64,000 nucleotides of DNA from Enterobacillus tribolii (GTDB lineage: Bacteria; Pseudomonadota; Gammaproteobacteria; Enterobacterales; Enterobacteriaceae), in the NCBI RefSeq assembly GCF_003363015.1, contig NZ_QRAP01000005.1, positions 330,820 to 394,819 on the forward strand, given 5' to 3'. The translations under genes and the position numbers were made by a program. Each line of letters starts with the position of its first letter. The stretch's first letter is position 1. This document shows positions 38,867 to 60,683 of this stretch, in pieces. The notes beneath the pieces are model-generated. The model was not told where the DNA came from and did not search any database. It saw only the letters and a list, made by a program, of their open reading frames with translations.

Positions 38867-40117
38867 ATGCAACCAAACACACCCCCCGTCATTTCCCGTT
38901 CCGTCTTGCTGAAAACGCGCAACAGCGTGTTTCTTACGTTTTTCCTTTGCGGCTTTATGCTGGCCTGCTGGGCAGGGCGCATTCCCTTAGTGATGACGAT
39001 GCTCAACATTAATACCTCGCAGATGGGGATTTTGCTGCTGTGTATGGCGGCGGGATCGATCATCGCCCTGATCCTCGCGGGTTGGATCACTTCACATTTT
39101 GTGAACGCCATGACTCTTTGCGGCGGCGGCGGTCTGTTCTCCGGCGGACTGCTGATCACCGGGCTGTCGGTGCACTACGGCAGTTACCCGCTGGCCGGCG
39201 CCGGGCTGTTCGTCGCCGGGCTGGGGTTCAGCGCTGTCGACGTCGCGATGAACCTGGAAGGTTCGCGGGTGGAGCGCCTGATGAAACGCACCATCATGCC
39301 GCGCCTGCACGCCTTTTTCTCGCTGGGCACCGTGGCCGGCGCCCTGTTGGCCGCCGGCTTGCAGTTCGTCAGCATTCCGTTTACGCCGCCGTTTCTGACG
39401 CTGGCTGTGCTGACGCTGCTCGGGCTTATCGCCTGTAGCCGTCGCTACCTGCCGGCGGAATACACCCGCGCGGCCACCACGCACGATGGCGCCTCCGGAG
39501 AAAAAGCCAATCCGTTCGCCGCCTGGCTGGAACCCCGCACGTTACTGATCGGTTTTATCGTGCTGACCGCCTCGCTGGTGGAAGGCGCGGCGTTTGACTG
39601 GCTGGCGCTGGGCGTGGTAACCGGCTTCGGCACCGGCGCGGCTGCACCGGCTGAATGGCTGGGGTCGCTCTCTTTAGCACTGTTCGTCACCGGCATGACC
39701 AGCATGCGCTGGTTCGGCGGCGCGCTGATCGACCGCTACGGCCGCGTCGCCATCCTGCGGCTGTGCATGCTGCTGGGAATTACGGGGCTGCTGATTTTCG
39801 GGCTGGCGCCGTCTTACCATATCGCCATCCTCGGTATCATCTGCTGGGGGCTGGGCAGCGCGCTGGCCTTCCCGATGGGCATGAGTGCGGCATCGGACGA
39901 GCCGTCTAACGCCGGCGCGCGCATCGCCGTCGTTGCGGCGCTGGGGTATTGCTCCATGCTGGCAGGGCCGCCGGTATTAGGCTTTATCGCCCACGCTACC
40001 GGCGTACGCAGCGCGTTGCTGATGCTGGTCCTCCCGCTGATCCTCAGCTTCTTCCTGCTGCCGGTGATGAAACCGCCGGCACAAAAGCAGGCACAGGCCG
40101 AGCGGATTTCCGGATAA
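38867..40117 (+). CDS. MFS transporter, YbjJ-like
   Basis: 416 aa, 12-TM, colinear with E. coli YbjJ (LEGSRVERLMKRTIMPRLHAFFSLGTVAGA...). Confidence 0.75.
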   Translation: MQPNTPPVISRSVLLKTRNSVFLTFFLCGFMLACWAGRIPLVMTMLNINTSQMGILLLCMAAGSIIALILAGWITSHFVNAMTLCGGGGLFSGGLLITGLSVHYGSYPLAGAGLFVAGLGFSAVDVAMNLEGSRVERLMKRTIMPRLHAFFSLGTVAGALLAAGLQFVSIPFTPPFLTLAVLTLLGLIACSRRYLPAEYTRAATTHDGASGEKANPFAAWLEPRTLLIGFIVLTASLVEGAAFDWLALGVVTGFGTGAAAPAEWLGSLSLALFVTGMTSMRWFGGALIDRYGRVAILRLCMLLGITGLLIFGLAPSYHIAILGIICWGLGSALAFPMGMSAASDEPSNAGARIAVVAALGYCSMLAGPPVLGFIAHATGVRSALLMLVLPLILSFFLLPVMKPPAQKQAQAERISG

Positions 40118-40261
40118 GTTTTTTCATGGAAAGCCAGGGGGTATTAGGCTGCTGGCTTTCTGATTAACGTTGAGTCGTCAAAGAAGATAAAGGGGGCTGA
40201 TGCCAGCCACGGTATCTTACTTAATACTGGCTGGGTGACTTCGGTTTGAAGATATAAATGG

Positions 40262-41221
40262 TCAATCTTCGTTATAGTCAGGGACAATGTTACACCATTC
40301 ATCTCCATCGAAAGTCCAGACAGCAGAGGATGAAGCAATTAACATCATAGAATTACTGCTGTCCATCGAGCCTGATGGATGAATCACTTCCCCATTGCAA
40401 ATAAAAAAGTCTTTAATACTATTCCCATCCCAAATGAAAAAGTCTGCCTCCCCGATCCCCCAAAGCATATTATTAAACCAGCACAAATCATTAAGCTCAT
40501 CATGCAATTCAATAATATCTATTTTTTCCCAGGTATTCTTTTTTCCCCGCCAAATTGCGCTTCCAGATGCCACATAAACAAAACCATCACCAGCACACAC
40601 AACATTTTTCAATTTATCATTTGTTGGAAATCCACATTGCTGCCATGTTTGGCCATCAAACCACCAAATGTCTCCTTTCCCACCAACCGCATAGACTTCA
40701 CTTTCAGAAAATCCCGATATATCTTCAAATCCGTAATCAAAAATATCTTCTCTGTCACGGTCAATTTTAAAATGGATTCCATTTACCATTGGCCGCCAAT
40801 CATTAATTCCATACCGTTTTGATACTAATCGCTTTAAACCTACTGCCCAGGCGTATCCATCAATCATTTTGACTTTTCGGATGAGAGCACTGTCATTCCC
40901 GCCAACCAACTCCGGTTCCCAGGTTGTTTTCCCCCCACCGCTGGGTAAGGCAAACCCACCAATACTATCAACCATGAGGCCTTGTGATACAGGTTTTTGA
41001 GATGCGCCAAGCACACTGGAAAACGCCTCATCAAATTGTATCGATGAGTAACCCAGTTCATCATCCCCGGCGTCTTCAATAAGAGTTACTTGCCTCATAT
41101 CATCATCTGTACAGTTTTCAGCCTTAAGATAAATGATATCGCTTTCCCTAATGGCGCAGTCGGTAATAATGTAATTGTTCAGTATCTTTTTCCAATCTTT
41201 TTTTGCCAGCTTCTTTTTCAT
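40262..41221 (-). CDS. hypothetical protein with repeated W/F-x-F-D-G-x-x-W blade-like motifs (low-GC islet)
   Basis: ~319 aa from ATG 41221 (GGAG RBS). Repeats: DIWWFDGQTWQQ, AIWRGKKNTWEK, FFIWDGNSIKDF, AVWTFDGDEWCN. No signal peptide. AT-rich codon usage unlike the flanking genes. Confidence 0.5.
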   Translation of the reverse strand: MKKKLAKKDWKKILNNYIITDCAIRESDIIYLKAENCTDDDMRQVTLIEDAGDDELGYSSIQFDEAFSSVLGASQKPVSQGLMVDSIGGFALPSGGGKTTWEPELVGGNDSALIRKVKMIDGYAWAVGLKRLVSKRYGINDWRPMVNGIHFKIDRDREDIFDYGFEDISGFSESEVYAVGGKGDIWWFDGQTWQQCGFPTNDKLKNVVCAGDGFVYVASGSAIWRGKKNTWEKIDIIELHDELNDLCWFNNMLWGIGEADFFIWDGNSIKDFFICNGEVIHPSGSMDSSNSMMLIASSSAVWTFDGDEWCNIVPDYNED

Positions 41222-41450
41222 TTTATTCTCCGTATTTACTAGCAGTCCTGTCATCTGGAGCCTAACCCTGGTGATTTTTCTATCTGGGAACTAATTGCTC
41301 TGATCCTTTTAGCCCTCCCACCTCAAGATCTGTCAGTTTATCCTTATCTACCAACACCAGACTCTATTTCTATGCACCATTCACTGAATCACCCTGACTA
41401 ATAAATAAGAAACCGAGCATTAATCCGGCTTCTTATGATAAATCAAAAAG

Positions 41451-41738
41451 CTAACTGGAAGTCATCGACGCCAACCGTCCATTATTATCCTGTAAAATAA
41501 AACTGGTACCATAAACACGTACAGCAGGACTAACGTGATTCTTCAGCTTATTCTCTGACTCAAGGAATATGTCGAATGTATATCGTTTTCCAGCTTCAAA
41601 GTGATAGCCATAGGTAGGAATACATTTATCTGAGGACACAGGCACATTAATGCTAAACTTTTTTAAAATGTTCTCTTTATTGCCTACCTCCATAATGATG
41701 AGAGTAACCAGTTTTTCATCATCTTCTGGTTGAACCAA
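41451..41738 (-). CDS. hypothetical small protein / possible gene fragment (low-GC islet)
   Basis: 95-aa ORF initiating at TTG, with an internal ATG (MEVGNKEN...). No recognisable domain. Upstream frames are broken. Confidence 0.25.
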   Translation of the reverse strand: MVQPEDDEKLVTLIIMEVGNKENILKKFSINVPVSSDKCIPTYGYHFEAGKRYTFDIFLESENKLKNHVSPAVRVYGTSFILQDNNGRLASMTSS

Positions 41739-42042
41739 AACACAAACATCATTATTAACAGTAGTTACTTTGGCATCACAATCTTGTTGTAATCAATTGA
41801 GTTACCGTACACAGCCCGGGCCAGAACAATGACCATGGAAGCATTTTTCACCCCATAGATCAATTAGGCATTACTTAAATATAATTTATGAAATCAACAA
41901 CTTTTCGATATTCCCTTTGACGGCATATTTCTTTTCACTCACTGAGTTTTAAGCGTTTCGCCACCGCCCTTTCGGGCGGCAATCAATAAAGCAACAATGC
42001 ACTGAAAACGGAATCGAATGGCCCGTAGCCAGTACCTCCCAA

Positions 42043-48627: not shown

Positions 48628-49191
48628 CTACTCTTCCGTCAGTTCGTCGTACAGGCCACGCAGGCGGGTGCGCAGGTAGAGCACGGCTTTGTGCTTACGT
48701 GACAGCAGCGCCTGCACGCTGGCGCCGGATTCTTCCGCCAGCGCCTTAAAGCTGTAGCCATGCAGCTCGGTCTTTTCGAAAACGTCACGCTGCGCCGCCG
48801 GCAGCTCCGCCAGCGCTTCGTCCAGCTCTTCCCAGATCAGCGCGCTCAGGTACTCTTCCTCCGGCGTTTGCGGCACGCCAAACAGGGTTTCAGCCAGCTC
48901 GTTTTCCGGCGCATCTTCTTCGTCGCCATCTTCGTCATAATAGACGGGCAGCGGCAGCTCGCGCTTTTTCCGCGCCCGATCGGTGATCTCATTGCGCGCG
49001 GCGCGGAACAGCCAGGCGGCGACGTTCTCCACCGGCTGTTCAATCTTCATGAGTTGATAGGTGACTTCCTGCAGGATATCGTCCGCATCATCACGCACCG
49101 CCGTGCGGCCACGGATAAAGGCTTTCAGCCGCGACCGGCAGGCGTTAAGGGCGGACATCACCAGGGAATCGCCTTCCTTACCGACCTTCAT
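48628..49191 (-). CDS. ECF-family RNA polymerase sigma factor
   Basis: Sigma-70 region 2 (DADDILQEVTYQLMK) and region 4 HTH (FKALAEESGASVQALLSRKHKAVLYLR). The ATG at 49191 lies 6 nt after the stop of the upstream His-rich gene. Confidence 0.7.
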   Translation of the reverse strand: MKVGKEGDSLVMSALNACRSRLKAFIRGRTAVRDDADDILQEVTYQLMKIEQPVENVAAWLFRAARNEITDRARKKRELPLPVYYDEDGDEEDAPENELAETLFGVPQTPEEEYLSALIWEELDEALAELPAAQRDVFEKTELHGYSFKALAEESGASVQALLSRKHKAVLYLRTRLRGLYDELTEE

Positions 49192-49196
49192 TACGC

Positions 49197-49688
49197 TCAC
49201 TCTGCTTCCGGCGTTTTCTGTTCGCCGTTTTCCGGCTGACGGCAGCATTCCCGTTCATTCCGCGGGCCGCGACGACCGTCGTGCTCAGGGCGCCCGCAAT
49301 GGCCATGATGACCGTGATGACCGTGATGACCGTGCCGTCCGAATCCGTCGCGCCGCTGGCGGATAAATTCTTCGCGCTCTTCCGGCGTCATGTTCATCCA
49401 GCGCGCATGCATCCGCCGGCGGTCACGCGCCATGCCGAACATGCCCGGACGCATTCCCAGCCCGCCGAACAGAATGCGGCACAGGATCAGCAAACCCAAC
49501 GCCTGCCAGAAACCAATGCTGCTCACGCCGAACAAGGCGGGCAACAACGCATTCCACAGCGACATGACCAACAGGCCCAGCACGACAAACAACACCGCGC
49601 CGATCGCCAGCGGTTTAACCATCGGATGACCGCCGAAGCCATCGTGACCGCGGCCATGACCATGACCGCGCATACCAAATTCTCTCAT
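49197..49688 (-). CDS. His-rich two-TM membrane protein (candidate metal-sensing anti-sigma/regulatory partner of the ECF sigma)
   Basis: ~163 aa from ATG 49688 (AGGAGAG RBS). N-terminal GHGHGRGHDGFGGH, two hydrophobic helices, and a C-terminal GHHGHHGHHGHCG plus CC pair. Translationally coupled to the ECF sigma. Confidence 0.5.
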   Translation of the reverse strand: MREFGMRGHGHGRGHDGFGGHPMVKPLAIGAVLFVVLGLLVMSLWNALLPALFGVSSIGFWQALGLLILCRILFGGLGMRPGMFGMARDRRRMHARWMNMTPEEREEFIRQRRDGFGRHGHHGHHGHHGHCGRPEHDGRRGPRNERECCRQPENGEQKTPEAE

Positions 49689-49927: not shown

Positions 49928-50662
49928 TTACGCCGTCAACCCGCCATCCAGCACCAGCGTTTGCCCGGTCATATACCGGCTGTCATCGCCGATCAGAAAC
50001 GCCGTTGCGCGCGCCACTTCCAGCGGGGTGCCGAGCCGTTTCAGCGGAACCTGTTTGCGCATCGCCTCCAGCTTGGCTGGCGGCATGGCTTCGGTCATCT
50101 CACTTTCGATGATGCCCGGCGCCAGGCAGTTAACGCGCAGGCCGAAACGGCCCAGCTCCGGCGCCAGCGAACGGCACAGGCCGATCATCGCCGCCTTGGT
50201 CGCGCCGTATGCAGTCTGCCCGATGTTACCCTTGATGCCGGTGACCGAAGACATCAGCACCAGCGCGCCGTCGCCGTTCATGATCATCGCCGGCAGCAGG
50301 TGCCGGTTCCAGTAAAACACCGCGTTCAGGTTGGTATTGATAACCTGTTGCCAGGTTTCCGCCGTTTGGTGGATGTGCAGGCCGTCCTGCGTAATGCCGG
50401 CGTTGTGGATCACGGCATGCGGCGCGCCGTGTTTTTCCAGCAGTTGCTGCGCCAACACATTAACCTGCTCTTCATTGCTGCCGTCGCACGGGTAAGCCTC
50501 TACCCATCCCGGCAGGCCGGCACAGGCGTCAACGACCGCCTGGCTGGCTTCACCGGTGTTACGGCAGGTGAACACCACGTTCCAGTCACGCGCCAGCTCT
50601 TCCACCAGCGCGCGACCGATCCCCCGGCTACCGCCGGTAATCAGCAGCCATTTTCTGTTCAT
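49928..50662 (-). CDS. SDR-family 3-oxoacyl-ACP reductase (FabG-like)
   Basis: ~245 aa from MNRKWLLITGGSRGIGRAL (TGxxxGIG Rossmann motif). Catalytic Y..K (YGATKAA) and S (SSVTG). Confidence 0.75.
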   Translation of the reverse strand: MNRKWLLITGGSRGIGRALVEELARDWNVVFTCRNTGEASQAVVDACAGLPGWVEAYPCDGSNEEQVNVLAQQLLEKHGAPHAVIHNAGITQDGLHIHQTAETWQQVINTNLNAVFYWNRHLLPAMIMNGDGALVLMSSVTGIKGNIGQTAYGATKAAMIGLCRSLAPELGRFGLRVNCLAPGIIESEMTEAMPPAKLEAMRKQVPLKRLGTPLEVARATAFLIGDDSRYMTGQTLVLDGGLTA

Positions 50663-50919
50663 GGCGCTGACTTCTGCTGTTGATCCGCCAGATGCTGGCA
50701 CAGTTCGCCCAGCGTCATTTCCGGGTTCTTGGTAAACATTTCCGCGTCGATGGTGACGCTGAACTCACGCTTGGCCAATACCATCAGTTCAACGTAGTCC
50801 AGGCTGTCGAGCTTCAGCTGGTGGAGAGGCATTTCTGCAGAAAGCTCATCCATCTCCATATCTTTAGCATCGCAGATCATTTCGCAGACTTTTTCATATA
50901 CGGTTTCATACTGGCTCAT
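50659..50919 (-). CDS. acyl carrier protein
   Basis: 86 aa with a phosphopantetheine attachment site (LKLDSLDYVEL, DSL motif). Confidence 0.75.
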   Translation of the reverse strand: MSQYETVYEKVCEMICDAKDMEMDELSAEMPLHQLKLDSLDYVELMVLAKREFSVTIDAEMFTKNPEMTLGELCQHLADQQQKSAP

Positions 50920-50937
50920 AGATAGTTCCCTTACTCA

Positions 50938-51759
50938 TTATTGTTGATATGAATTGACCTGGGCCGGCAACGTTTTCAATGTTACCGCGGTGGACAGCAA
51001 CGGCTGTTCATCCGACCAGGCCTGAATCACTATGCTGAGAACAAACCCACTTTCCCCTGAACCTGTTACTAAGGTGGGCTGAATCGCACAGTGCATACCC
51101 GAACCTGCGTGGAAATCGGCATCGGGCGAGAATAAACATGCATTAAAATGAACATCATGGTGCGTCTGTACTACCGGAACGCGGCCAAATACGTCGATCA
51201 GTGCATTGGCCCGTAATTGCGGAAAAACTTCTTTTACCATCCGCATGGTGTCCGGCGCTTCCACAATGCGCTGGAACAGCACGGCGTCCAGAAAACTCCA
51301 CAACCGGGCCGGTTCCTGCGCCGGTAGCGGAAAACGATGGCTCAGCGTACGTAGATCGTCCGAGGAATAGACGAGCACGTTGTCCGCGGGCGCGATCGTC
51401 AGCGGGGCGGCGGCGGTCAGCTTGGCGGAAAAGCAAACACTGTCGCTCTGCTCATCAACCAGCGTTCCCCTGACTTTCGTCCCGTCCGGCTGGCCGGTCA
51501 GCGACATCTGATAAGACTTATGGCACATCAGCGGCTGGCGCAGGCGTGCGCTGAACATGTAGAACTCCGCCTGCGGCGATGCCTGCAGCAACGCCGCGCT
51601 AAGATATTGTTTCATGTCCAGCAAAGCACGCATGCCATGTACGCTGAGATCGTCGCCGCCCAGCGCGCGGGCGCGCTCCAGATCGAAATGGATCGGGTTG
51701 TAGTCGCCGGAAAAGGCGGCCCACTGTTCGGCGTCACGTACGGTATACGTCAGGATCAT
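50938..51759 (-). CDS. MaoC-like double-hotdog (3R)-hydroxyacyl-ACP dehydratase
   Basis: 273 aa. The N-terminal hotdog carries FSGDYNPIHFD (MaoC dehydratase signature). A second hotdog-like half follows. Confidence 0.65.
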   Translation of the reverse strand: MILTYTVRDAEQWAAFSGDYNPIHFDLERARALGGDDLSVHGMRALLDMKQYLSAALLQASPQAEFYMFSARLRQPLMCHKSYQMSLTGQPDGTKVRGTLVDEQSDSVCFSAKLTAAAPLTIAPADNVLVYSSDDLRTLSHRFPLPAQEPARLWSFLDAVLFQRIVEAPDTMRMVKEVFPQLRANALIDVFGRVPVVQTHHDVHFNACLFSPDADFHAGSGMHCAIQPTLVTGSGESGFVLSIVIQAWSDEQPLLSTAVTLKTLPAQVNSYQQ

Positions 51760-53015
51760 GATCCGCTCCGGCTGATGATCAACGCCGCGTTAGCCCCGCC
51801 GAAGCCGAAGCTGAGATTCAGCGTATTATCCAGCTTGCCCGCCCGGTGCCCCTCGGCGACATAGTCCAGATCGCACGCCGGATCGGCGTTCTTCAGGTTG
51901 CAGGTAGCCGGCATCATCTGATGCTCCAGCGCCTGCAAACAGACGATGGACTCGAAGCTGCCCGCCGCCGCGATCAGGTGACCGGAATAAGACTTGGTGC
52001 TGGAGATCGGAATACGGTATGCCTGCTCGCCCAGCGCGATCTTCACCGCTTCGGTTTCGTTCAGGTCGTTGAGCGGCGTGGACGTACCGTGCGCGTTGAT
52101 ATAATCAATATCCTGCGCCGTGAATCCCGCCTGCTTCAGCGCCCGCTCGATGGTTTTGACGCGCGCCACCTTGTCGCCCGCCGGGGCGGTAAAGTCGAAG
52201 GCGTCGGAATAGTTTCCATAGCCTTTGATTTCGCCCAGGATGGTCGCGCCGCGCGCCAACGCTGCTTCGCGCTCTTCCAGGCACAGCACGGCGGCGCCTT
52301 CAGACAACACGAAACCGTTGCGATCGGTGCTGAACGGGCAGCAGGCACGGGTGACCTCTTCTTTTTCACTGGCCAGCGCCCCCAGAACATCGATGTTCCA
52401 AACCGATGCGTCGCTGCGCAGGGATTCACCCGCGCCCGCCAGCATCATGGACGCCCGGCCGCTGCGGATGATTTCAAATGCATCGCCAATGGCGATGGTG
52501 CCGGTCGCGCAGGCGGCAATCGGGGAGTTCTGGTAACCGCGCAGGCCCCAGAACAGGCTGCACGCCGCGGTGGCGACGTTCGGCATCGAGAAGAAGCAGC
52601 CGAAAGGCGAACCGACGCCGGAACGCTTGTATTCATCATAAAATTCGTAAGTTTCATCCTGCCCGGCCCAGCCGGTGCCGATGATGGCGCCGCACTCCAG
52701 CAGATCGTAATGATCCTTCGGATGCCCTTCGCCGAAGGCCATCGTCATGGCTTCACGCGCGGCGGCCAGCGACAGGCGCCCATGGCGCGGCAGGCGGCGG
52801 CGAATGGCGGCCGGTACGCCTTTCAGGCTGGGTTCTTCATCAATCAGGCCGAAGAAACGGGCCGAAATCCCTTCATCGGCACGGTCGACAAAACGGTATC
52901 CCAGGCGATACGCCATGATGGAATCCCAGCTTTCCCCGGCATTGCCTCCCAATGGGGTGACGGCACCATAACCTGTGACGACAACCCGACGCGGCATATT
53001 ATTATCGTTATCCAT
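51756..53015 (-). CDS. beta-ketoacyl-ACP synthase (FabB/FabF-like KAS)
   Basis: 419 aa with N-terminal VVVTGYGAVTPLG, an active-site Cys region and C-terminal His/His/Gly-rich motifs (GHLIAAAG; FGFGGANA). Confidence 0.8.
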   Translation of the reverse strand: MDNDNNMPRRVVVTGYGAVTPLGGNAGESWDSIMAYRLGYRFVDRADEGISARFFGLIDEEPSLKGVPAAIRRRLPRHGRLSLAAAREAMTMAFGEGHPKDHYDLLECGAIIGTGWAGQDETYEFYDEYKRSGVGSPFGCFFSMPNVATAACSLFWGLRGYQNSPIAACATGTIAIGDAFEIIRSGRASMMLAGAGESLRSDASVWNIDVLGALASEKEEVTRACCPFSTDRNGFVLSEGAAVLCLEEREAALARGATILGEIKGYGNYSDAFDFTAPAGDKVARVKTIERALKQAGFTAQDIDYINAHGTSTPLNDLNETEAVKIALGEQAYRIPISSTKSYSGHLIAAAGSFESIVCLQALEHQMMPATCNLKNADPACDLDYVAEGHRAGKLDNTLNLSFGFGGANAALIISRSGS

Positions 53016-54408
53016 TATTCATCCCTCCGAGGTCTTTTTCGTTATCGACACCCCCACCCAACGCCAGCCAAAGCTTCATCGTGGCGTACAAGTAGTTGTA
53101 TTGCATGGTCAACAAATTGTTCTCACTACTAAGCAGGGAATCCTGCGCATCCAGTAAGGTCTGGAAAGAAACGGCACCGGCCTGATATTGGCTGGTGACC
53201 AGCGCCAGACGGCGCTGGCTGAGCTCCAGGTCGCGCATCAGGCTGGCTTTTTGGCTTTCCGCATTCAGGCGTTGCGCCATGGCGTTATCCACGTCGGAAA
53301 GCGCGCTGTAGGCCGTGCTGCGGAACTTCACCGCGGCCTGTTGGACGTTCAGGTCGGACTGTTCGATCGTCAGCTGAACCGTATTCCACTGAATAAAAGG
53401 CAACGCGACGGCGGCGCCCAACGTCCGCACCGGGTTGGTGAACCATTGGGAAAATACGGAGCTACCGGCGCTTGCCCCGGCAGACAGCGACAGCGAAGGG
53501 TAGAAACTCAGTTTCGCCGCATCCTTACCCGCCAGCGCGGCGCGCAGACGCCACTCTTCGGCCTGCACGTCAGGGCGATGACCGATAACCTGCAACGGAA
53601 CGCGATCGGCAATGGCGATGCTCTGCATGAAGTCGAGCGTGCTCAGCTCATCCTGACGCTGGGAGGGGGGGCGGTTAAACAGGATCGCCATCGCGTTACG
53701 CGCTTCTTCCCGCTGTTCTTTCAGATCGCGCAGGCGGTTACGTTTACTGATGACGGACTGCTCCGACTGCAGCAGATCCACCTGCCCCACGTTGCCGGCT
53801 TCATAGCGCGAATTCACCATATCGAGCGTCTTTTCCGCGATCTCCAGGCTCTTTTCCTGGTTGGCGATCTGCTGATTGAGGCTGCCAATCTGCCAGTAAA
53901 GCTGCGCGGTAGTCCCGATCAGCGACAGGGCGGTAGCCTGGCGGTCGAACTCCGTCGCCTTCACTTTCCAGGCGGACTGCTCGCGCTCACGCGCCAGCTT
54001 GCCCCACAGATCCAGCTCATAGCTCAGGGAGATCGACGAACTGTAGGTTTCCTTCGGATCCGTATTGTTGTTCAGATTCTTGGTGTTGCTGGCGGAACCA
54101 CTCACGCTCACGTTCGGCGTCAGGTTGGTGTTGGTCAGCCCGGCCGCCACGCGCGCCAGTTGCAGTTGAATGCCGGCCGCCGCCAAATCGTTGTTGGTCG
54201 CCAGCATCTGGCTGATGATGCGTGAGAGCTGGGGATCGTTGAAGTTGTCCCACCAGTGAGGCGTATTTTTCAGGAACGTCGTACCGGTGCTGTCCTGCTG
54301 CTGCCAGGTGTCCGGCACCGACAGTTCCGGGCGCTGATATTCCGTTTTCGTCAGCGCGCCGCATCCGGTAAGCAGCAGGGTTAACAACGCTATCTGATAT
54401 CTTTTCAT
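53008..54408 (-). CDS. outer-membrane efflux lipoprotein (NodT/OprM family OMF)
   Basis: 466 aa with a lipobox (LLTGC) and the two coiled-coil/beta-barrel repeats typical of TolC-family OMFs. Confidence 0.8.
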   Translation of the reverse strand: MKRYQIALLTLLLTGCGALTKTEYQRPELSVPDTWQQQDSTGTTFLKNTPHWWDNFNDPQLSRIISQMLATNNDLAAAGIQLQLARVAAGLTNTNLTPNVSVSGSASNTKNLNNNTDPKETYSSSISLSYELDLWGKLAREREQSAWKVKATEFDRQATALSLIGTTAQLYWQIGSLNQQIANQEKSLEIAEKTLDMVNSRYEAGNVGQVDLLQSEQSVISKRNRLRDLKEQREEARNAMAILFNRPPSQRQDELSTLDFMQSIAIADRVPLQVIGHRPDVQAEEWRLRAALAGKDAAKLSFYPSLSLSAGASAGSSVFSQWFTNPVRTLGAAVALPFIQWNTVQLTIEQSDLNVQQAAVKFRSTAYSALSDVDNAMAQRLNAESQKASLMRDLELSQRRLALVTSQYQAGAVSFQTLLDAQDSLLSSENNLLTMQYNYLYATMKLWLALGGGVDNEKDLGGMNNG

Positions 54409-54410
54409 AT

Positions 54411-56369
54411 TTACTCGCGTGCCAGCGCCTCCGTTGGGTTAAGACGAGCGGCGTTCCTTGCCGGGAAGAACCCGAAGCACAAACCGATCAGCGCTGAGAA
54501 ACCGCACGACAACAGGACCGGCAGCAGGGTGAACACCATCGAGAACTCCTGGGTAACGAAGGAGAACAGGACCCCGAATATCCAGGAGCCGGCGATCCCC
54601 ATCAGTCCGCCCAAGACACAAATCACGATCGCTTCAATCAGGAACTGCAACATAATGTCCGCCGGCCGCGCGCCGACCGAAAGACGGATGCCGATCTCGT
54701 GGGTACGCTCCGTGACCGAAACCAGCATGATGTTCATTACCCCGACGCCCCCCACCAGCAGGGAGATCGCCGCGATGGCGGTGATCAACAGCGACATGGA
54801 GTCAGACGTTTTTTGCAGCGCCTTCGCCAGTTGATCGTCGGTCTGCGTGAAAAAGTCACGCTTCTCGTGTACCTGCTCCAGCAGCAATTCGACCCGGCGC
54901 TGCGCCTCCGACAGAGACACACCCTCATGGAAACGCAGCGTCAGTGATTCGATCGGCATAGTGCCGGACATGCGTTCCATCAGCGAGGTATACGGGATCC
55001 AGCCGCCCATCAGGCCGCCGATCACCTTAGGTCCTTTCTTGCTCGCCACGCCGACCACGCGGAACGGAACCCCCGACAGCAGGATTATTTCGCCGTTCGG
55101 ATCTTCCCCCTCCTCAAACAGGATCGACTTCGCCAGTTGATCGATGATGATGACCGGCTCGCGGTTCTCTACGTCTGCACCGGAGAAAGGCGCGCCGCTG
55201 CTGAAGTTGACGTCCTGCACGCGGAAGTAATCGTCGTTCACGCCGGAAAGCTGCATCATCGTCATCGGGATGTTGCCGCGGATGGCCTGCGCATTTTTAC
55301 CGACCACCGGCGATACGCTGTCAACGTAGGGCTGTTTTTGCAGTAGCTCTACGTCGGCCACCGACAGCGCATTGGCGTATTCGGGGCTTACCCGCCCCAT
55401 GCTCAGGCCGGGGCGGACTTCGAGCGTACTGTTACCCAGCTTGCCGATTTCCTGCATGATGCTCTGACGTGCGCCTTCCCCTACCGCCATGGACGAAACC
55501 ACCGATGAGATGCCGATGATGATCCCCAGCATGGAGAGGAAAGCACGGGTACGGTGCCCCAGCAGCGAGCGCCACGCCATGCGTACCGCTTCCGTCACGC
55601 TCAGCCAGAACGGCGGGCGCCCGTTGGAGTCCACCTTGGGCAAACCGCCGGAAGCGACGTCTTCGCGGTTGGACTCATTGACACGGTCGGCGATGATCTC
55701 GCCGTCGCTGATTTCGATGATGCGCTCGGCCTGATTGGCGATTTCCCGATCGTGGGTCACGATGATGATGGTGTGCCCGGCCTGATGCAGGGAGTGCAGA
55801 ATGCCCATCAGCTCCTGGCCGCTGGCGCGGTCCAGCGCGCCGGTCGGTTCGTCCGCCAGAATGATGCTGGCGCCGTTCATCAGCGCGCGCGAGATACTGA
55901 CGCGCTGCTGCTGGCCGCCGGAAAGCTGCGCCGGCTTATAGCCCATACGATGGCCCAGGCCCAGGCGCTTCAGCAGGTATTCAGCGCGGCTCTGCCGTTC
56001 GGCAACCGGCATCGCGGTATAAAGCGAGGGGATCGCCACGTTTTCCGTCGCCGTCAGGTACGGCATCAGGTGATAACGCTGGAAAATAAAGCCGATGTAC
56101 TGGCTGCGCAACTGCGCCAGTTGTTCGCTGTCGGCCACGTGCGCAGGCACGTCGTGGATAAACATCTCGCCCTGCGTCGGCTTGTCCAGGCAGCCGATGA
56201 TGTTCATCAGCGTAGACTTGCCGGAGCCGGAAGCCCCGACGATCGCCACCATCTCTCCCTCATGGATCTTGAGGGAGATATCCTTCAGCACCGCCACGGT
56301 CTCATTCCCCGACGGGAAGTGCCGGTAAATACCATTTAATTCAATCAGCGGCGAGGTGTCTTTCGTCAT
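54411..56369 (-). CDS. MacB-type ABC transporter (N-terminal ATPase fused to an FtsX-like permease)
   Basis: 652 aa with Walker A (GASGSGKST), signature ([15 protein letters not shown]), Walker B ([11 protein letters not shown]), then 4 TM segments with a large periplasmic loop. Confidence 0.85.
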
Positions 56370-56371
56370 AG

Positions 56372-57538
56372 CTACTTCCTGGCCATCGCGATGGTGCTGC
56401 CAATAACGACCTCTTCACCTTCCTGCAGGCCTTCCTTCACTTCGGCATACAGGCGATCATTTACGCCGGTTTTTATCCAGCGTGTTTCCACGCTATCGCC
56501 TTTTTTCACCCGCACCTGATAGGTGTTTTGATCTTTGCGCTGCCCCAGCGCGGTCATCGGCACTCTCGGCACGCCTTTAGCCTGCTCCGTGATGATGAAA
56601 ACCTGGGCTGTCATGTAAGTCCGCAGCAGGTGCTCGCTGTTGTCGATGTCGAACACGCCGTTGTAATAAACCGCGCTTTGCTGCTGGGAGGAGCTCATGG
56701 AAGAACTTTGCTCCATCAGCGCTTCATCCGGCGCGGATTGAATATTGCCCATCGTGCCTTCGTAACGGCGCTTGGGATCGGCCAGCACGTAAAACCACAG
56801 AGGCTGCCCCGGCTGTACCTTCAGGATATCGGCTTCTGAAATCCGGGTGTGGACCGTCATGGTGTCCATGTCCGCCAGCACCAGAATGGTCGGCGCGGTT
56901 TGCGAGGAAACGACCGTCTGACCTTCTTTGGTGACGATGCCCAGCACTTCGCCGTCCATCGGCGCCAGAATCTGGGTATAGCCGACGTTGGCCTTCGCTT
57001 TCTCCACCGCGGTTTCCGACTGGGTGATCTGCGCTTCATTCATGCGCAGTTGTTCAAGCTGGGCGTTATATTGCGCCTGAGCTTTCTCCAGATCGCTCCG
57101 CACGCCGGCGCCATCGCGGAACATTCTTTGCTGACGCTTCAATTCCTGCTGATACTGCTTAATCAATACGCGGGTGGAAGCGCGCTGCGCCAGCGAGCTG
57201 ACCAGCTGAGCTTCGGAGGTGCGCAGTTCGTTTTGTTGCAGCGTGGGGTCGATTTCGGCCAGCAGATCCCCTTTCTTGACCCGGTCGCCCTGCTTCACGT
57301 ACAGCTTCTTCAACTGCCCGTTAACCTGGGCGCCGACGCTGACCTGCAGCGACGGTTTGATAATGCCGGTGGACAAGACGGTCTTTTCAATATCGCCAAT
57401 GGATACCGGTTCCGTCAGCAGAGAGGCGGTTTCTTTATTTCCTCCGCTGAACATCTGGCTGATGGCTACCGCCACCAGCGCGATCACGGCCAGTGCCAGG
57501 AGAACAACCTTTTTGCGCTTTCCGCTCCATTTCGCCAT
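56372..57538 (-). CDS. MacA-type periplasmic adaptor (HlyD/RND MFP family)
   Basis: 388 aa with an N-terminal TM anchor, lipoyl/coiled-coil hairpin and beta-barrel regions. Immediately upstream of MacB. Confidence 0.8.
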   Translation of the reverse strand: MAKWSGKRKKVVLLALAVIALVAVAISQMFSGGNKETASLLTEPVSIGDIEKTVLSTGIIKPSLQVSVGAQVNGQLKKLYVKQGDRVKKGDLLAEIDPTLQQNELRTSEAQLVSSLAQRASTRVLIKQYQQELKRQQRMFRDGAGVRSDLEKAQAQYNAQLEQLRMNEAQITQSETAVEKAKANVGYTQILAPMDGEVLGIVTKEGQTVVSSQTAPTILVLADMDTMTVHTRISEADILKVQPGQPLWFYVLADPKRRYEGTMGNIQSAPDEALMEQSSSMSSSQQQSAVYYNGVFDIDNSEHLLRTYMTAQVFIITEQAKGVPRVPMTALGQRKDQNTYQVRVKKGDSVETRWIKTGVNDRLYAEVKEGLQEGEEVVIGSTIAMARK

Positions 57539-57550
57539 TTCAATGCATCC

Positions 57551-59710
57551 TTAATACGCAGCGGTCGCGACGAGTGGCTGCTCCACAGACGGAGTTGCCG
57601 AAGAGGCTTTTTCAAGCCGGCCATTTTCCATGCGATACACCTGATCAAACATCGCCAGCACCGTTTCGCTGTGCGTCACGGTAATCAAGGTCTTGCCGTA
57701 TTCGCGGCAGTGCTCCAGCAGGGTTTTGATCACCTGCTGAGCGGTAACTTCGTCCAGGTTGGCCGTCGGTTCGTCCAGCACCAGAACCGGTTTGTCGCTG
57801 TACATCGCCCTGGCCAGCAGCAAGCGCTGGCGTTGCCCCAGCGACAGCGCGGCATGGCTTTCACGGATCAGGGCGTTTTGCCCGCCGGGCAGCTTCGAGA
57901 CGACCGACGTCAGATTCAGCCCTTCCAGCGAGGCATCTACGCGCAGCTGTTTCTTCTCATCGAAGTCGGCGTCAAACAGCGTAATGTTTTGCAGCACGGA
58001 GGCGTTGAACAGAATGTCCTCCTGGCTTTGCAGGAAAAACAGGGAGTGAGCCTGACGGGCGTTAATCAGCACGTCGTCCACCGCGATCTCGCCAGCGGTC
58101 GGCGTAATCAGCCCGGCCATGATGCGCAGCAGGGTACTTTTACCGGCGCCGGATTCACCCACGATGGCCGTACTCTGGCCGCGGCGCAGGGACAACGATA
58201 AGTCGCTCAGCACCATCTGCTGCGGCTCATAGCCGAAGCAAATGCCGCGGTAGTCCAGCTGGCGCTCGAAGTGCACCACGGGCACCGGCGTCGCATCCCG
58301 CTCCTGTGCGTTTTCATCGTCGGTTTTGACCGGGAACAGATCCTTGGCGCGGGTATCAATAACGTGGATCTGGTTCTTCTGCAAAACAGAGAAAAAGATT
58401 CGGGTGATATAGGAGGTGAAGATCTGCCGGATAAAGTTATAGGCAAAGAATTCACCCAGGCTGATCACCCCGTCTTTCAGCATCGGCAGAGAAAGGAACA
58501 TGAACAGCACCATCTCAATGCTGCCAATCATCTGGTAAATGCTGTTTTTAACCTGCTCGTAAATCCGTTGCTTTTGCAGCGTGGTGAACAATGCCCAGGT
58601 ATAGCGGGCGAAATTGCTCTTGCGCTGGCTGTCCAGCCCTGCGGATTTGATGGTGGAAAAGCCCTGAATGGTTTCCAGAATATAGTCGTTCTGATCGGCG
58701 CTTTTCACCTGCAGCTGCTGGGTGTAGTAACGGTCGCGGTAAATCGCCCAGACGCTGACCAGCCCCATCAGGCTTACGCCGACGGCAGACACGGCCGCCA
58801 GTACCGGGCTGATGTAACACATCAGCGCCAGCGCAATAACGCCGATGATCCAGTCGGTGCGCAGGCCGTTATCCAGTTCAATCTTACGCGCCGCGGCCAT
58901 CTGCCAGGCTGAGAACCGGCTGAATATTTCACCGGGCGAGCGTTTGTCGAAAAAGCGCAGTTGGTTGCTCAGCAGGCGGGAAAATCCGGCCGTGCTGTTC
59001 AGAATGACGAACCGTTTGACGAACCGCTCAGTCAGTATGCGCAGCCCCATCGCCAAACCGGTGGAAGCGACAAACGCCAGGAAAAAGTAGAAATACGGGA
59101 AGTCAGTATTCCCGGCCCCCGAGAACACCTGGTTAATGGCCGAGCTGACCATGGTCGGCATGATGAACAGCGACAGGGAAATGATAAACGCGCAGATCAT
59201 CAGCCAGTAAATACCGGGAAGCTTTGAGGTTTCCTTCAGGCTCATGCTTTCCATGGCGCGGAAACGCTGGCTCTCCTTACGGGCCTTCAGCGTGGCTTCA
59301 TCGATAGTGGCTTCTTCGTCCAGCACCAGGGCATAACCGCTGATTTGCGCCTTCAGCGCATCCAGCGGCAGCAGCTGCTGCCCGATGGCCGGGTTCATCA
59401 CGCAAACGTAGTTTCCTTTACGGTAGGCCAGCACGACGTAATGGCTGGCGCCGTAGTGCAAAATCGCCGGCAGCGGCAGCGCATCGAGTTCGTTAAACGC
59501 GAACGCGACGGGGTAAACCGGGATCTTCAGATCTTCGAGAATGGAACACAGCGTCGCCAACGACGTGCCGTGCTCGGATGCGGGGTAACTCTCCCTCAGT
59601 TCGCGCAGCGGAACGTGCACGCCCTGCGTTTCCGCCAGCATCGAAATGCATGCCAGACCGCATTCATTGGTTTCTCCCTGAAATACCTGAGAAGGAATGA
59701 TCTTTTCCAT
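57551..59710 (-). CDS. peptidase-C39-domain ABC transporter (double-glycine leader-cleaving bacteriocin exporter, CvaB/LagD type)
   Basis: 719 aa. N-terminal C39 domain with catalytic Cys (QGETNECGLACI) and His (GASHYVVL). 6-TM domain. C-terminal NBD (GESGAGKST; LSLGQRQRLLLARA; VLVLDEPTANLD). Confidence 0.85.
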   Translation of the reverse strand: MEKIIPSQVFQGETNECGLACISMLAETQGVHVPLRELRESYPASEHGTSLATLCSILEDLKIPVYPVAFAFNELDALPLPAILHYGASHYVVLAYRKGNYVCVMNPAIGQQLLPLDALKAQISGYALVLDEEATIDEATLKARKESQRFRAMESMSLKETSKLPGIYWLMICAFIISLSLFIMPTMVSSAINQVFSGAGNTDFPYFYFFLAFVASTGLAMGLRILTERFVKRFVILNSTAGFSRLLSNQLRFFDKRSPGEIFSRFSAWQMAAARKIELDNGLRTDWIIGVIALALMCYISPVLAAVSAVGVSLMGLVSVWAIYRDRYYTQQLQVKSADQNDYILETIQGFSTIKSAGLDSQRKSNFARYTWALFTTLQKQRIYEQVKNSIYQMIGSIEMVLFMFLSLPMLKDGVISLGEFFAYNFIRQIFTSYITRIFFSVLQKNQIHVIDTRAKDLFPVKTDDENAQERDATPVPVVHFERQLDYRGICFGYEPQQMVLSDLSLSLRRGQSTAIVGESGAGKSTLLRIMAGLITPTAGEIAVDDVLINARQAHSLFFLQSQEDILFNASVLQNITLFDADFDEKKQLRVDASLEGLNLTSVVSKLPGGQNALIRESHAALSLGQRQRLLLARAMYSDKPVLVLDEPTANLDEVTAQQVIKTLLEHCREYGKTLITVTHSETVLAMFDQVYRMENGRLEKASSATPSVEQPLVATAAY

Positions 59711-59732
59711 GAGCGATATCTTCTAATCCATT

Positions 59733-60683
59733 CTATTCATTGATGAAATACAATGAATGCGCATGCCACAATAACCAGTCGGCCGGATGGCGGGTTATTG
59801 ACTCTTCAATAATGACCGGCATTTTCTTTTTCAACTCGCGGGCCGCAACCGGCGGCTCAATGTGAATTTTGATGCCTTTGTCGTAATACAGGTTGTAAAA
59901 CACCACCTGCGCCGACAGCACCCTGGCCAGCCGGATAATGCCGCTGTGCAAATGCGCAGGGCGGTTGAACAGGGTACAGTTCAGCTTGCCGGCCCGGGTT
60001 TCGTTGGTATCCAGGGTATAGTCCGGCGTGATGTCGGGAAAAATCATGATATTGCGCTGGTGGTCGGCGGCTTCCATGATGGAATCCATCAGGTTGCCGG
60101 CAATCATCCGGTTGTCACTGTGGATTGAGCAGTAAGTGAGGTTGACCCCGCCCATGGCGCGATCCTGCTCCTGATAAATCTCCGCGCTGGAAGACACCAC
60201 CACCGTGGCCTTCCCCGGATAAACCATGCTGCCGACGATGCCGGCCAGAATGTCCGATACCATGTGCATCGGCGCCAGGATCACCGGGGAGCCGTTCTGA
60301 TGCAGCGGTTCTACGATCTGATTAAGCTGATCGGCGCACTGCTTCAGTTCAGACTGGATCTGAGCGCTTTGCCCGTAGGTTGCGGCCAGGTCCAGCAGTT
60401 GCCGGCGCTGGGACACCCACGTATGACGCAACGGGGCCGCATCCGGCCCCAGCAAGCATCTTTTATTCTCTTCGGCCACCAGCGCCAGGTTGCGCCGGCG
60501 GCGCCCTGTCAGCCGCAGCCCGCGGCTGATGTGCGCCAGCAGAAACCCGGCGCGGTAGTCCAGGTGACGAAAGAGAAAACGGGCGGTTTTGCCGTGCCAC
60601 TCACGTGACTTGCCGACCTGTTCAGCCAGTTTCCCGGTGAAGTTTTTCCAGCTGAGATACAGCCACACGGCAAAGAAACGCAT
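59733..60683 (-). CDS. LpxL/HtrB-family (lipid A late acyltransferase-like) ACP-dependent acyltransferase
   Basis: 316 aa. Motif blocks parallel LpxL: HMVSDILAG (LpxL HFMSLELGG, HX4D/E region), FPDITPDY (LpxL APDQDY), and C-terminal PADWLLWHAHSLYF (LpxL PEQYLWIHRRFK). Confidence 0.6.
   Translation of the reverse strand: MRFFAVWLYLSWKNFTGKLAEQVGKSREWHGKTARFLFRHLDYRAGFLLAHISRGLRLTGRRRRNLALVAEENKRCLLGPDAAPLRHTWVSQRRQLLDLAATYGQSAQIQSELKQCADQLNQIVEPLHQNGSPVILAPMHMVSDILAGIVGSMVYPGKATVVVSSSAEIYQEQDRAMGGVNLTYCSIHSDNRMIAGNLMDSIMEAADHQRNIMIFPDITPDYTLDTNETRAGKLNCTLFNRPAHLHSGIIRLARVLSAQVVFYNLYYDKGIKIHIEPPVAARELKKKMPVIIEESITRHPADWLLWHAHSLYFINE

Follow-up and report, generated by a model that had tools for sequence, protein, structure and literature searches.

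Why would a bacterium keep four genes for type II fatty acid synthesis (FAS) within a set of export genes, and to which molecule would the resulting acyl chain be attached? This question is raised by positions 49928-53015 (minus strand) of a 64-kb stretch of the Enterobacillus tribolii genome, which is hereafter called the window. A first-pass annotation, made from the letters of the sequence, had recognized at these positions a beta-ketoacyl-ACP synthase (KAS), a double-hotdog dehydratase (DH), an acyl carrier protein (ACP) and a FabG-like ketoreductase (KR). We found all four genes in place, and they form the 3' end of an uninterrupted string of 11 genes that spans positions 49928-61774, all of them on the minus strand. 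In 5' to 3' order, the string encodes a small peptide of the Pfam family DUF4762, a DsbA-like protein, an acyltransferase, a peptidase-containing ABC transporter (PCAT) of the C39-ABC type, MacA-, MacB- and NodT-type proteins, and finally KAS, DH, ACP and KR. It is quite probable, in our view, that the acyl donor used by the acyltransferase of this cluster comes from the quartet. The DUF4762 peptide (61580-61774), which has a double-glycine leader and was not named in the first-pass annotation, is the probable acceptor scaffold. Taken as a complete chain of steps, the cluster would make and secrete a fatty-acylated, disulfide-bonded ribosomal peptide, and we give this full reading an even chance of being correct.

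A dedicated fatty-acid-synthesis quartet among export genes

The genes of the string are closely packed. There is no gap between the frames of the dsbA-like gene and the acyltransferase gene, the nodT and KAS frames overlap by 8 bp, and the KAS/DH and ACP/KR junctions are overlaps of 4 bp each. The quartet is embedded in an export operon, as the first-pass annotation had stated.

The KAS (51756-53015; 419 amino acids, aa) is a paralog of the FabF clade, that is, an elongating condensing enzyme. It matches both ketoacyl-synthase domains of Pfam, PF00109 and PF02801 (E values of 1e-32 and 1e-33), and its Cys-His-His triad is intact in the motifs ACATG, HGTST and SGHL, which align with those of KAS II. 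Against the fabF model TIGR03150 it scores 375.6 bits, below the equivalog cut-off of 493.75, and against the FabB model it scores 231 bits. Comparison with solved structures gave the same order, with about 236 bits for Escherichia coli FabF and about 161 bits for FabB.

The dehydratase (50938-51759; 273 aa) is an (R)-specific enzyme of the MaoC type that carries two hotdog folds in one chain, and it is in this respect a double-hotdog protein. Its match to the MaoC family of Pfam (PF01575) covers the first 76 residues and, at 29.9 bits, lies just over the gathering score of 27. The hydratase-2 motif FSGDYNPIH, with the catalytic residues D19 and H24, is invariant in the family and is kept in the distant cluster types. 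This catalytic motif lies in the N-terminal hotdog, which is unusual, and the C-terminal hotdog has an invariant QTH motif of its own. The nearest solved relative by sequence is the HadB subunit of mycobacteria, with similarity in the motif region only. The family is confined to this type of cluster: all of its 192 matches occur in Enterobacterales.

The third gene encodes a private ACP (50659-50919; 86 aa, pI 4.3) with a phosphopantetheine serine in the motif DSL. It matches the PP-binding family of Pfam (E = 1e-9) and falls below every AcpP equivalog cut-off (29 bits against TIGR00517, for which the cut-off is 70.45). It is 30% identical over 53 residues to E. coli AcpP, and a sequence search of solved structures gave no match. 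The last gene (49928-50662; 244 aa) encodes a FabG-like, NAD(P)H-dependent 3-ketoacyl reductase of the classical short-chain dehydrogenase/reductase (SDR) type, with the fold of that family and the motifs TGxxxGIG, S and YxxxK. Its score against the FabG model TIGR01830 is 233.3 bits, under the cut-off of 297.75. Although its open reading frame can be extended to 49928-50701 from a GTG codon, the real start is probably an ATG at 50662 that shares bases with the stop codon of the ACP gene and corresponds to the gene call of 244 aa.

All four proteins score under the NCBIfam housekeeping equivalog cut-offs, which supports the view, already put forward in the first-pass annotation, that they form a dedicated FAS module separate from the housekeeping fab genes. 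There is no second copy of KAS, DH, ACP or KR within the window. In addition, no gene for an enoyl reductase, AMP-ligase, thioesterase, FabD, FabH or phosphopantetheinyl transferase (PPTase) was found in the cluster, either here or in any related locus. The lack of the first three, which had been pointed out for the quartet itself, extends to the whole cluster and its relatives.

The peptide, the acyltransferase and a proposed route

The precursor peptide (64 aa; PF15959, E = 3.9e-10) consists of a 15-aa double-glycine leader, MKKINMIEAMQVVGG, and an acidic core of 49 aa with a mass of about 5.0 kDa. We aligned 53 unique peptides of this family and found that they share a 15-residue leader of the form MKKxNxxEAxxIVGG, with hydrophobic residues at positions -4, -7, -12 and -15, Glu at -8 and Gly-Gly at the end. 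The cores are about 44-52 residues long and usually acidic or neutral, and they have four conserved Cys residues and an invariant Lys in the motif C-x-(D)K-x-G. The peptide and the PCAT together show the features of a double-glycine system, namely a GG leader with conserved spacing and a cognate exporter with the Gln, Cys and His residues of the C39 peptidase. When 1.84 billion representative proteins were searched exhaustively with a profile, only 35 peptide clusters at 50% identity emerged, all of the same design, whereas a word-indexed homology search with the 64-aa peptide had given only seven close relatives. A hidden Markov model of the peptide detected a precursor in 76 of 83 loci. Four of the seven remaining loci (L002, L003, L040 and L080) are truncated before the position of the peptide gene; the others are the locus of plasmid pE41 (L082), where a distant peptide falls below the threshold, a decayed Salmonella locus (L083) and L047. 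Two tandem peptide genes were observed in each of the loci L051, L053 and L058.

Directly 3' of the peptide stop codon (about 61470-61579, minus strand) lie two RNA hairpins with a minimum free energy of -52.4 kcal/mol (z = -5.7 relative to shuffled sequences), one of which is a listed terminator-like site. In bacteriocin operons and in operons for peptides that are made by ribosomes and modified after translation (RiPPs), such hairpins usually set the ratio of precursor to enzyme transcripts. The pair found here may likewise be an attenuator or a transcript stabilizer between the precursor and enzyme genes. The next gene (60684-61364) encodes the DsbA-like thiol:disulfide oxidoreductase, which has a CHYC motif and matches the DSBA family of Pfam (E = 7.5e-12) while remaining below the NCBIfam DsbA cut-offs. 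Its residues 1-28 form a hydrophobic segment that may serve for export or as an anchor. The gene is missing exactly in those cluster variants whose peptide has two Cys residues.

The acyltransferase (59733-60683; 316 aa) is 100% identical to the NCBI protein of E. tribolii and has the LpxL/LpxM/PatA fold. It barely reaches the threshold of the Lip_A_acyltrans family of Pfam and matches none of the NCBIfam models for LpxL, LpxM and LpxP; therefore, orthology with the lipid A enzymes is improbable. A sequence search of solved structures gave no match, and it was fold comparison alone that placed the enzyme closest to LpxM and PatA, at an identity of only about 14%. Its invariant motifs are H140-x-V-S-D144, FPDxxP, LHxG and WxLWH. 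Hydropathy analysis indicated no transmembrane segment, including no N-terminal membrane helix. Given this and the LpxM/PatA fold, a cytoplasmic acyl-ACP would fit as the donor. In most genomes, NCBI and UniRef call this protein an 'ABC transporter', a label that appears to have been carried over from the neighboring gene.

The export genes make up the center of the string. The PCAT (57551-59710) has an N-terminal C39 cysteine peptidase (Q11, C17 and H90) followed by a transmembrane domain and an ATPase, with matches to Peptidase_C39 (E = 6e-24), ABC_membrane and ABC_tran of Pfam and a score of 275 bits against the NHLP bacteriocin export ABC model. The MacA-type periplasmic adaptor (56372-57538) scores 290.9 bits against the NCBIfam MacA model, for which the cut-off is 342, and exceeds the cut-off of RND_mfp. 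The MacB-type ABC transporter (54411-56369) is a fusion of an ATPase, a MacB periplasmic core and an FtsX permease (Pfam ABC_tran, MacB_PCD and FtsX; 733 bits against the NCBIfam MacB model, with a cut-off of 966). The NodT-family outer-membrane efflux lipoprotein (53008-54408), whose gene lies directly 5' of the KAS gene, has the lipobox LTGC and scores 256.7 bits against TIGR01845, over the cut-off of 210.

From this gene content we infer the following route for the acyl product and its transfer to the peptide. Because the cluster has neither a PPTase nor FabD, the private ACP would be primed and loaded by the housekeeping AcpS and FabD. The FabF-like KAS would then elongate an acyl primer taken from the general pool, and the reductase and the MaoC-type dehydratase would convert the 3-keto intermediate to a 3-hydroxy and then to a trans-2-enoyl chain on the private ACP. 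As the cluster brings no enoyl reductase of its own, the chain that is passed on would probably be either hydroxylated or alpha,beta-unsaturated, in the manner of the NodFE system; alternatively, FabI may saturate it. The acyltransferase, as a soluble or peripheral enzyme, would take over the chain from the ACP and attach it to the peptide on the cytoplasmic side of the inner membrane, and the candidate acylation sites are the invariant Lys of the motif C-x-D-K-x-G and the amino terminus freed by leader cleavage. The C39-ABC exporter would cleave after Gly-Gly and carry the peptide to the periplasm, where the DsbA-like protein would introduce two disulfides. Finally, MacAB-NodT would collect the lipopeptide, either in the periplasm or from the outer leaflet, and would expel it or display it on the surface.

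The last step is modeled on known pumps. Pumps of the MacB type export disulfide-containing peptides from the periplasm, and their Lol relatives extract lipoproteins (PMC5985334). For example, MacAB-TolC secretes the enterotoxin STII from the periplasm after its oxidation by DsbA, PvdRT-OpmQ, also of the MacB type, exports pyoverdine after periplasmic maturation, and LolCDE draws acyl chains out of the outer leaflet (PMC5985334). The Aat system, in which an acylated protein passes through a MacB/Lol-like pump (PMC7943197), provides a further model.

Distribution, variants and boundaries of the cluster

We collected related loci by an acyltransferase profile search of contigs from one genome per species and determined their gene content with a tblastn matrix. 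The search gave 73 loci, all of which occur in Enterobacterales except for one contig of a metagenome-assembled genome (MAG). The cluster is found in about 70 species, in genera that include Serratia, Yersinia, Rahnella, Pantoea, Citrobacter, Enterobacter and Providencia. The exceptional contig (L022; JBEBPQ010000053.1, labeled MAG: Advenella kashmirensis) is 99-100% identical to the window in the genes for the peptide, the DsbA-like protein and the acyltransferase; it probably comes from Enterobacillus and was mis-binned into a betaproteobacterial MAG. The same 11 genes occur in the same order in essentially every sufficiently long locus. Across the related loci, identity to the window proteins is 66-82% for KAS, 54-77% for the reductase, 50-78% for ACP and 32-57% for the dehydratase. 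The first-pass annotation had linked the quartet to the LpxL-like enzyme, and the co-occurrence of the two in about 70 species bears this link out.

The cluster is mobile. IncF plasmids of E. coli carry the complete set of genes between flanking insertion sequence (IS) elements, and an IS3 element has displaced the peptide gene. One such plasmid copy that is intact, again with a displaced peptide gene, is NZ_CP128928.1. A blastn search of E. coli chromosomes with the quartet DNA gave no match, and the plasmid copies themselves are too divergent for blastn. A decaying copy was observed on the IncFIB plasmid CP075023.1 of Salmonella Newport (L083), where the annotation breaks the PCAT, MacB and TolC-family genes up into fragments. 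A distant version is found on plasmid pE41 of Serratia marcescens, where the order is peptide, macA, macB, outer-membrane factor, KAS, DH, ACP, KR, acyltransferase and PCAT. In this rearranged cluster the gene for the acyltransferase comes directly after that for the reductase, and it stands immediately before the PCAT gene, as it also does in the standard order. The pE41 acyltransferase and dehydratase are only 27% and 28% identical to those of the window, and the catalytic invariants of both are kept. The pE41 peptide has 53 aa, a leader ending in VIGG, two Cys residues and the D-K-x-G motif (as DKDG), and no dsbA gene is present. A second type of Rahnella cluster shows the same combination of a two-Cys peptide and no dsbA gene. 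The genomes of Serratia fonticola RP0009 (L007/L013) and GTA-SR07 (L008/L021) and of Rahnella laticis SAP-17 (L035/L047) each contain the entire cluster twice, in diverged copies.

The 3' boundary of the cluster lies at the reductase gene. In Yersinia enterocolitica and Pantoea ananatis, the gene string ends there and is followed by an autotransporter gene or a fimbrial operon. In the window, the reductase is followed by a gene for a His-rich membrane protein (49197-49688) and then by one for an extracytoplasmic function (ECF) sigma factor (48628-49191). The quartet had been described as lying between an efflux lipoprotein and an ECF sigma factor; the lipoprotein, NodT, is indeed its direct upstream neighbor, and the sigma factor gene is near, although it is neither adjacent nor conserved. 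We considered the sigma factor and the His-rich protein as possible parts of the system and rejected both, as they are missing 3' of the cluster in Y. enterocolitica, P. ananatis, Serratia montpellierensis and the E. coli plasmid. Because the cluster stops at the reductase in the first two of these, we regard the sigma factor and the His-rich protein as local neighbors. The His/Gly-rich membrane protein, encoded on the minus strand and adjoining the sigma factor gene upstream, matched no family and may be an anti-sigma or metal-sensing partner. Its gene contains a 9-bp repeat (49306-49334), and the length of the protein varies from 160 to 167 aa across sequencing samples. A gene for a FimB/FimE-like recombinase was observed just 3' of the cluster in P. 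ananatis (L079, 12582-13130, followed by the fimbrial operon) and in S. montpellierensis (L055, 19631-20179), which could be a coincidence or a common insertion hotspot.

Two further features of the window lie outside the gene string. The stretch 40001-42000 has a GC content of 0.41, compared with about 0.59 elsewhere in the window, and looks like a recently acquired insert; it contains a 330-aa open reading frame (40262-41254, minus strand) that belongs to no Pfam family. At the other end, positions 62607-64000 (minus strand) encode an FKBP/FkpA-type peptidyl-prolyl isomerase whose gene extends past the end of the window and whose N-terminal part is a tandem array of 105-bp (35-aa) units rich in Gln, Glu and Lys. 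The same gene in locus L001 encodes 1359 aa, which is unusually long for FkpA.

Alternative explanations and known systems

Several observations weigh against the acylation of the peptide. LpxM and PatA, the solved relatives of the acyltransferase, act on hydroxyl groups of lipids or glycolipids and not on peptides, and the histidine motif of the enzyme is H-x3-D instead of the classical H-x4-D/E. The first core residue, directly after Gly-Gly, varies among the 53 aligned peptides, and the full-length Rahnella locus L047 has no recognizable peptide gene adjoining it. Of the quartet, the chromosomal clusters of the S. marcescens group contain KAS and ACP only; therefore, the dehydratase and the reductase are not essential to the system. 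In addition, we found no candidate for an immunity gene in any locus, so that a bacteriocin role is at most a possibility.

The main alternative is that the cluster makes two separate products. In this case, the quartet and the acyltransferase would make or remodel a lipid, and the PCAT would export the peptide as an unmodified, microcin-like disulfide peptide. One possibility for the lipid is a free lipid or a glycolipid that leaves through MacAB-NodT, as with DevBCA; another is lipid A or phospholipid in an altered form by which the producing cell is protected. The enzymes whose solved folds come closest to that of the acyltransferase act on lipid A and on a glycolipid, and pumps of the MacB type export glycolipids (DevBCA) and may handle glycolipids related to lipopolysaccharide (PMC5985334). 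Moreover, envelope remodeling or efflux could provide the immunity for which no gene is visible. However, neither in the approximately 70 loci nor in the rearranged plasmid type do the lipid genes occur without those for the peptide, the PCAT and the pump, and in every case the acyltransferase gene lies immediately upstream of that for the PCAT. The poor match of the acyltransferase to the lipid A models, described above, also speaks against this reading. We regard two separate products as unlikely, while giving the idea real weight.

A less probable explanation, which we consider doubtful at best, is that the acyl chain is a temporary anchor that tethers the peptide to the inner membrane during its oxidation in the periplasm and is removed either ahead of release or following it, so that the final product is not lipidated. 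The pyoverdine precursor is acylated and later deacylated. The export of pyoverdine by PvdRT-OpmQ following periplasmic maturation (PMC5985334) offers a parallel; however, no version of the cluster contains an acylase or hydrolase gene that could remove the chain.

Could the quartet simply consist of spare or stress-responsive paralogs of housekeeping FAS enzymes that lie beside an efflux operon with no functional link to it? Their intact catalytic motifs and their likeness to FabF, FabG and ACP are compatible with this. On the other hand, their reading frames overlap those of the pump genes, the synteny is invariant over genera and on plasmids, and the same parts recur in the rearranged cluster. 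Together with the scores under the housekeeping cut-offs and the restriction of the dehydratase family to this cluster, this makes a chance neighborhood very improbable.

Last, we can practically dismiss the possibility, named in the first-pass annotation itself, that these genes are orthologs from an aryl-polyene, flexirubin or polyunsaturated fatty acid (PUFA) cluster with its remaining genes just outside the window: an LpxL-like acyltransferase next to KAS, ACP, KR and DH does look superficially similar, and there are weak sub-threshold matches to FlxB (186 bits against 340) and PRK09185 (183 against 407), but the FabF and FabG models score far above any aryl-polyene, flexirubin or PUFA model, the single KAS has no chain-length-factor partner, the dehydratase is of the MaoC type and not FabZ-like, no thioesterase, ligase, LolA-like protein or MMPL exporter occurs in the window or the related loci, and in other genomes the cluster stops at KR and gives way to unrelated genes (autotransporter, fimbriae or IS elements), with no further lipid genes beyond it. 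A PUFA synthase (pfa) was rejected as well, with 63 bits against the PfaA model (cut-off 1010) and all proteins being discrete type II enzymes.

Returning to the proposed acylation of the DUF4762 peptide, we tentatively suggest that the cluster represents a new class of ribosomal lipopeptides in Enterobacterales, although we hold this wider claim with somewhat less confidence than an even chance. In such a class, an enzyme of the LpxM/PatA fold would have been repurposed from lipid to peptide (DUF4762), a private type II FAS would provide the chain, release would take two steps through PCAT and MacAB-NodT, and plasmids would have spread the genes in Yersinia, Serratia, Citrobacter, Enterobacter, Providencia, E. 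coli and Salmonella. We found no paper on DUF4762, PF15959 or this combination of genes, in a search of the literature that was incomplete, so that an earlier description is possible. If the peptide does carry an acyl chain, the pathway would, to judge from the literature that was searched, be the first one for a ribosomal lipopeptide in Enterobacterales. It would also make the acyltransferase the first enzyme of the LpxL/PatA fold with a demonstrated peptide substrate, add to Aat/Cex a second, mechanistically distinct case in which a pump of the MacB type handles a lipidated polypeptide, and provide a function both for DUF4762 and for a gene that is widely misnamed 'ABC transporter'. The carriers include clinically or agriculturally relevant bacteria, namely Y. 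enterocolitica, the S. marcescens group, Citrobacter, Enterobacter, Providencia and P. ananatis, in addition to the IncF plasmids of E. coli and Salmonella, and the product could bear on their competition, signaling or surface properties.

We compared the cluster with the known systems that it resembles, and it is a member of none of the three closest ones, Aat/Cex, NodFE-NodA and the class II microcins, as it differs from them in acyltransferase family, acyl donor, leader type and gene set. The Aat/Cex system, which consists of AatPABCD with dispersin or CexE and occurs in enteroaggregative and enterotoxigenic E. coli, likewise combines a dedicated acyltransferase, which is predicted in our case, with a MacB/Lol-like pump, an adaptor and a TolC-like channel, through which the lipidated protein is released or brought to the surface of the cell (PMC7943197, PMC5985334). 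However, AatD is an N-acyltransferase of the Lnt type that modifies an N-terminal glycine after Sec export, whereas the enzyme described here has the LpxM/PatA fold and no transmembrane segment. AatD presumably takes its acyl chain from a membrane lipid, as Lnt does. The donor in our cluster would instead be a private acyl-ACP made by four dedicated FAS genes. In addition, the substrate in our cluster has a double-glycine leader, which the C39-ABC exporter would cleave, and its first core residue varies; the gene set also contains a paralog of DsbA. In the Aat system, the small secreted protein CexE is acylated and then secreted through the MacB/Lol-like pump (PMC7943197).

The rhizobial NodE/NodF(+NodG)-NodA system is similar in having a private KAS II-like enzyme and ACP, an optional FabG-like reductase, no enoyl reductase and export by an ABC transporter. 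The dedicated KAS and ACP, NodE and NodF, are required for the alpha,beta-unsaturated chains of Nod factors, which are attached by a dedicated acyltransferase (PMC9048898). The clusters of the S. marcescens group, with KAS and ACP only, mirror NodE/NodF exactly. In contrast, the acceptor in the Nod system is a chitooligosaccharide and NodA belongs to an unrelated family, while our cluster has a MaoC-type double-hotdog dehydratase and presumably a ribosomal peptide as acceptor. With the class II microcins, such as colicin V and its exporter CvaAB-TolC, the cluster shares the GG leader pattern, a C39-ABC exporter, a small disulfide-bonded core and a patchy distribution in Enterobacterales and on plasmids. 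However, it has no CvaA-type adaptor and no recognizable immunity gene, and it adds MacAB-NodT, a DsbA paralog, an acyltransferase and four FAS genes. The DUF4762 peptides do not appear in the catalogue of Serratia class II microcins (PMC13101503). The 'cluster 675' antibiotic locus of Pantoea (PMC7744662), which we also considered, is another cluster, one that encodes an AMP-ligase and an RND pump.

The fatty-acylated RiPPs of Gram-positive bacteria (lipolanthines, goadvionins, selidamides and lipoavitides) also join a ribosomal peptide to a chain made by FAS- or polyketide synthase-type enzymes of the same cluster. These systems use GNAT-type or other acyltransferases together with lanthionine or avionin chemistry and occur mostly in Actinobacteria. 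None of them is known to rely on an LpxL/PatA-fold enzyme or a MacAB pump, or to be present in Enterobacterales. Finally, the acyltransferase described here also differs from LpxL, LpxM and the mycobacterial PatA in its gene context, which is formed by a peptide-export cluster and not by lipid A genes.

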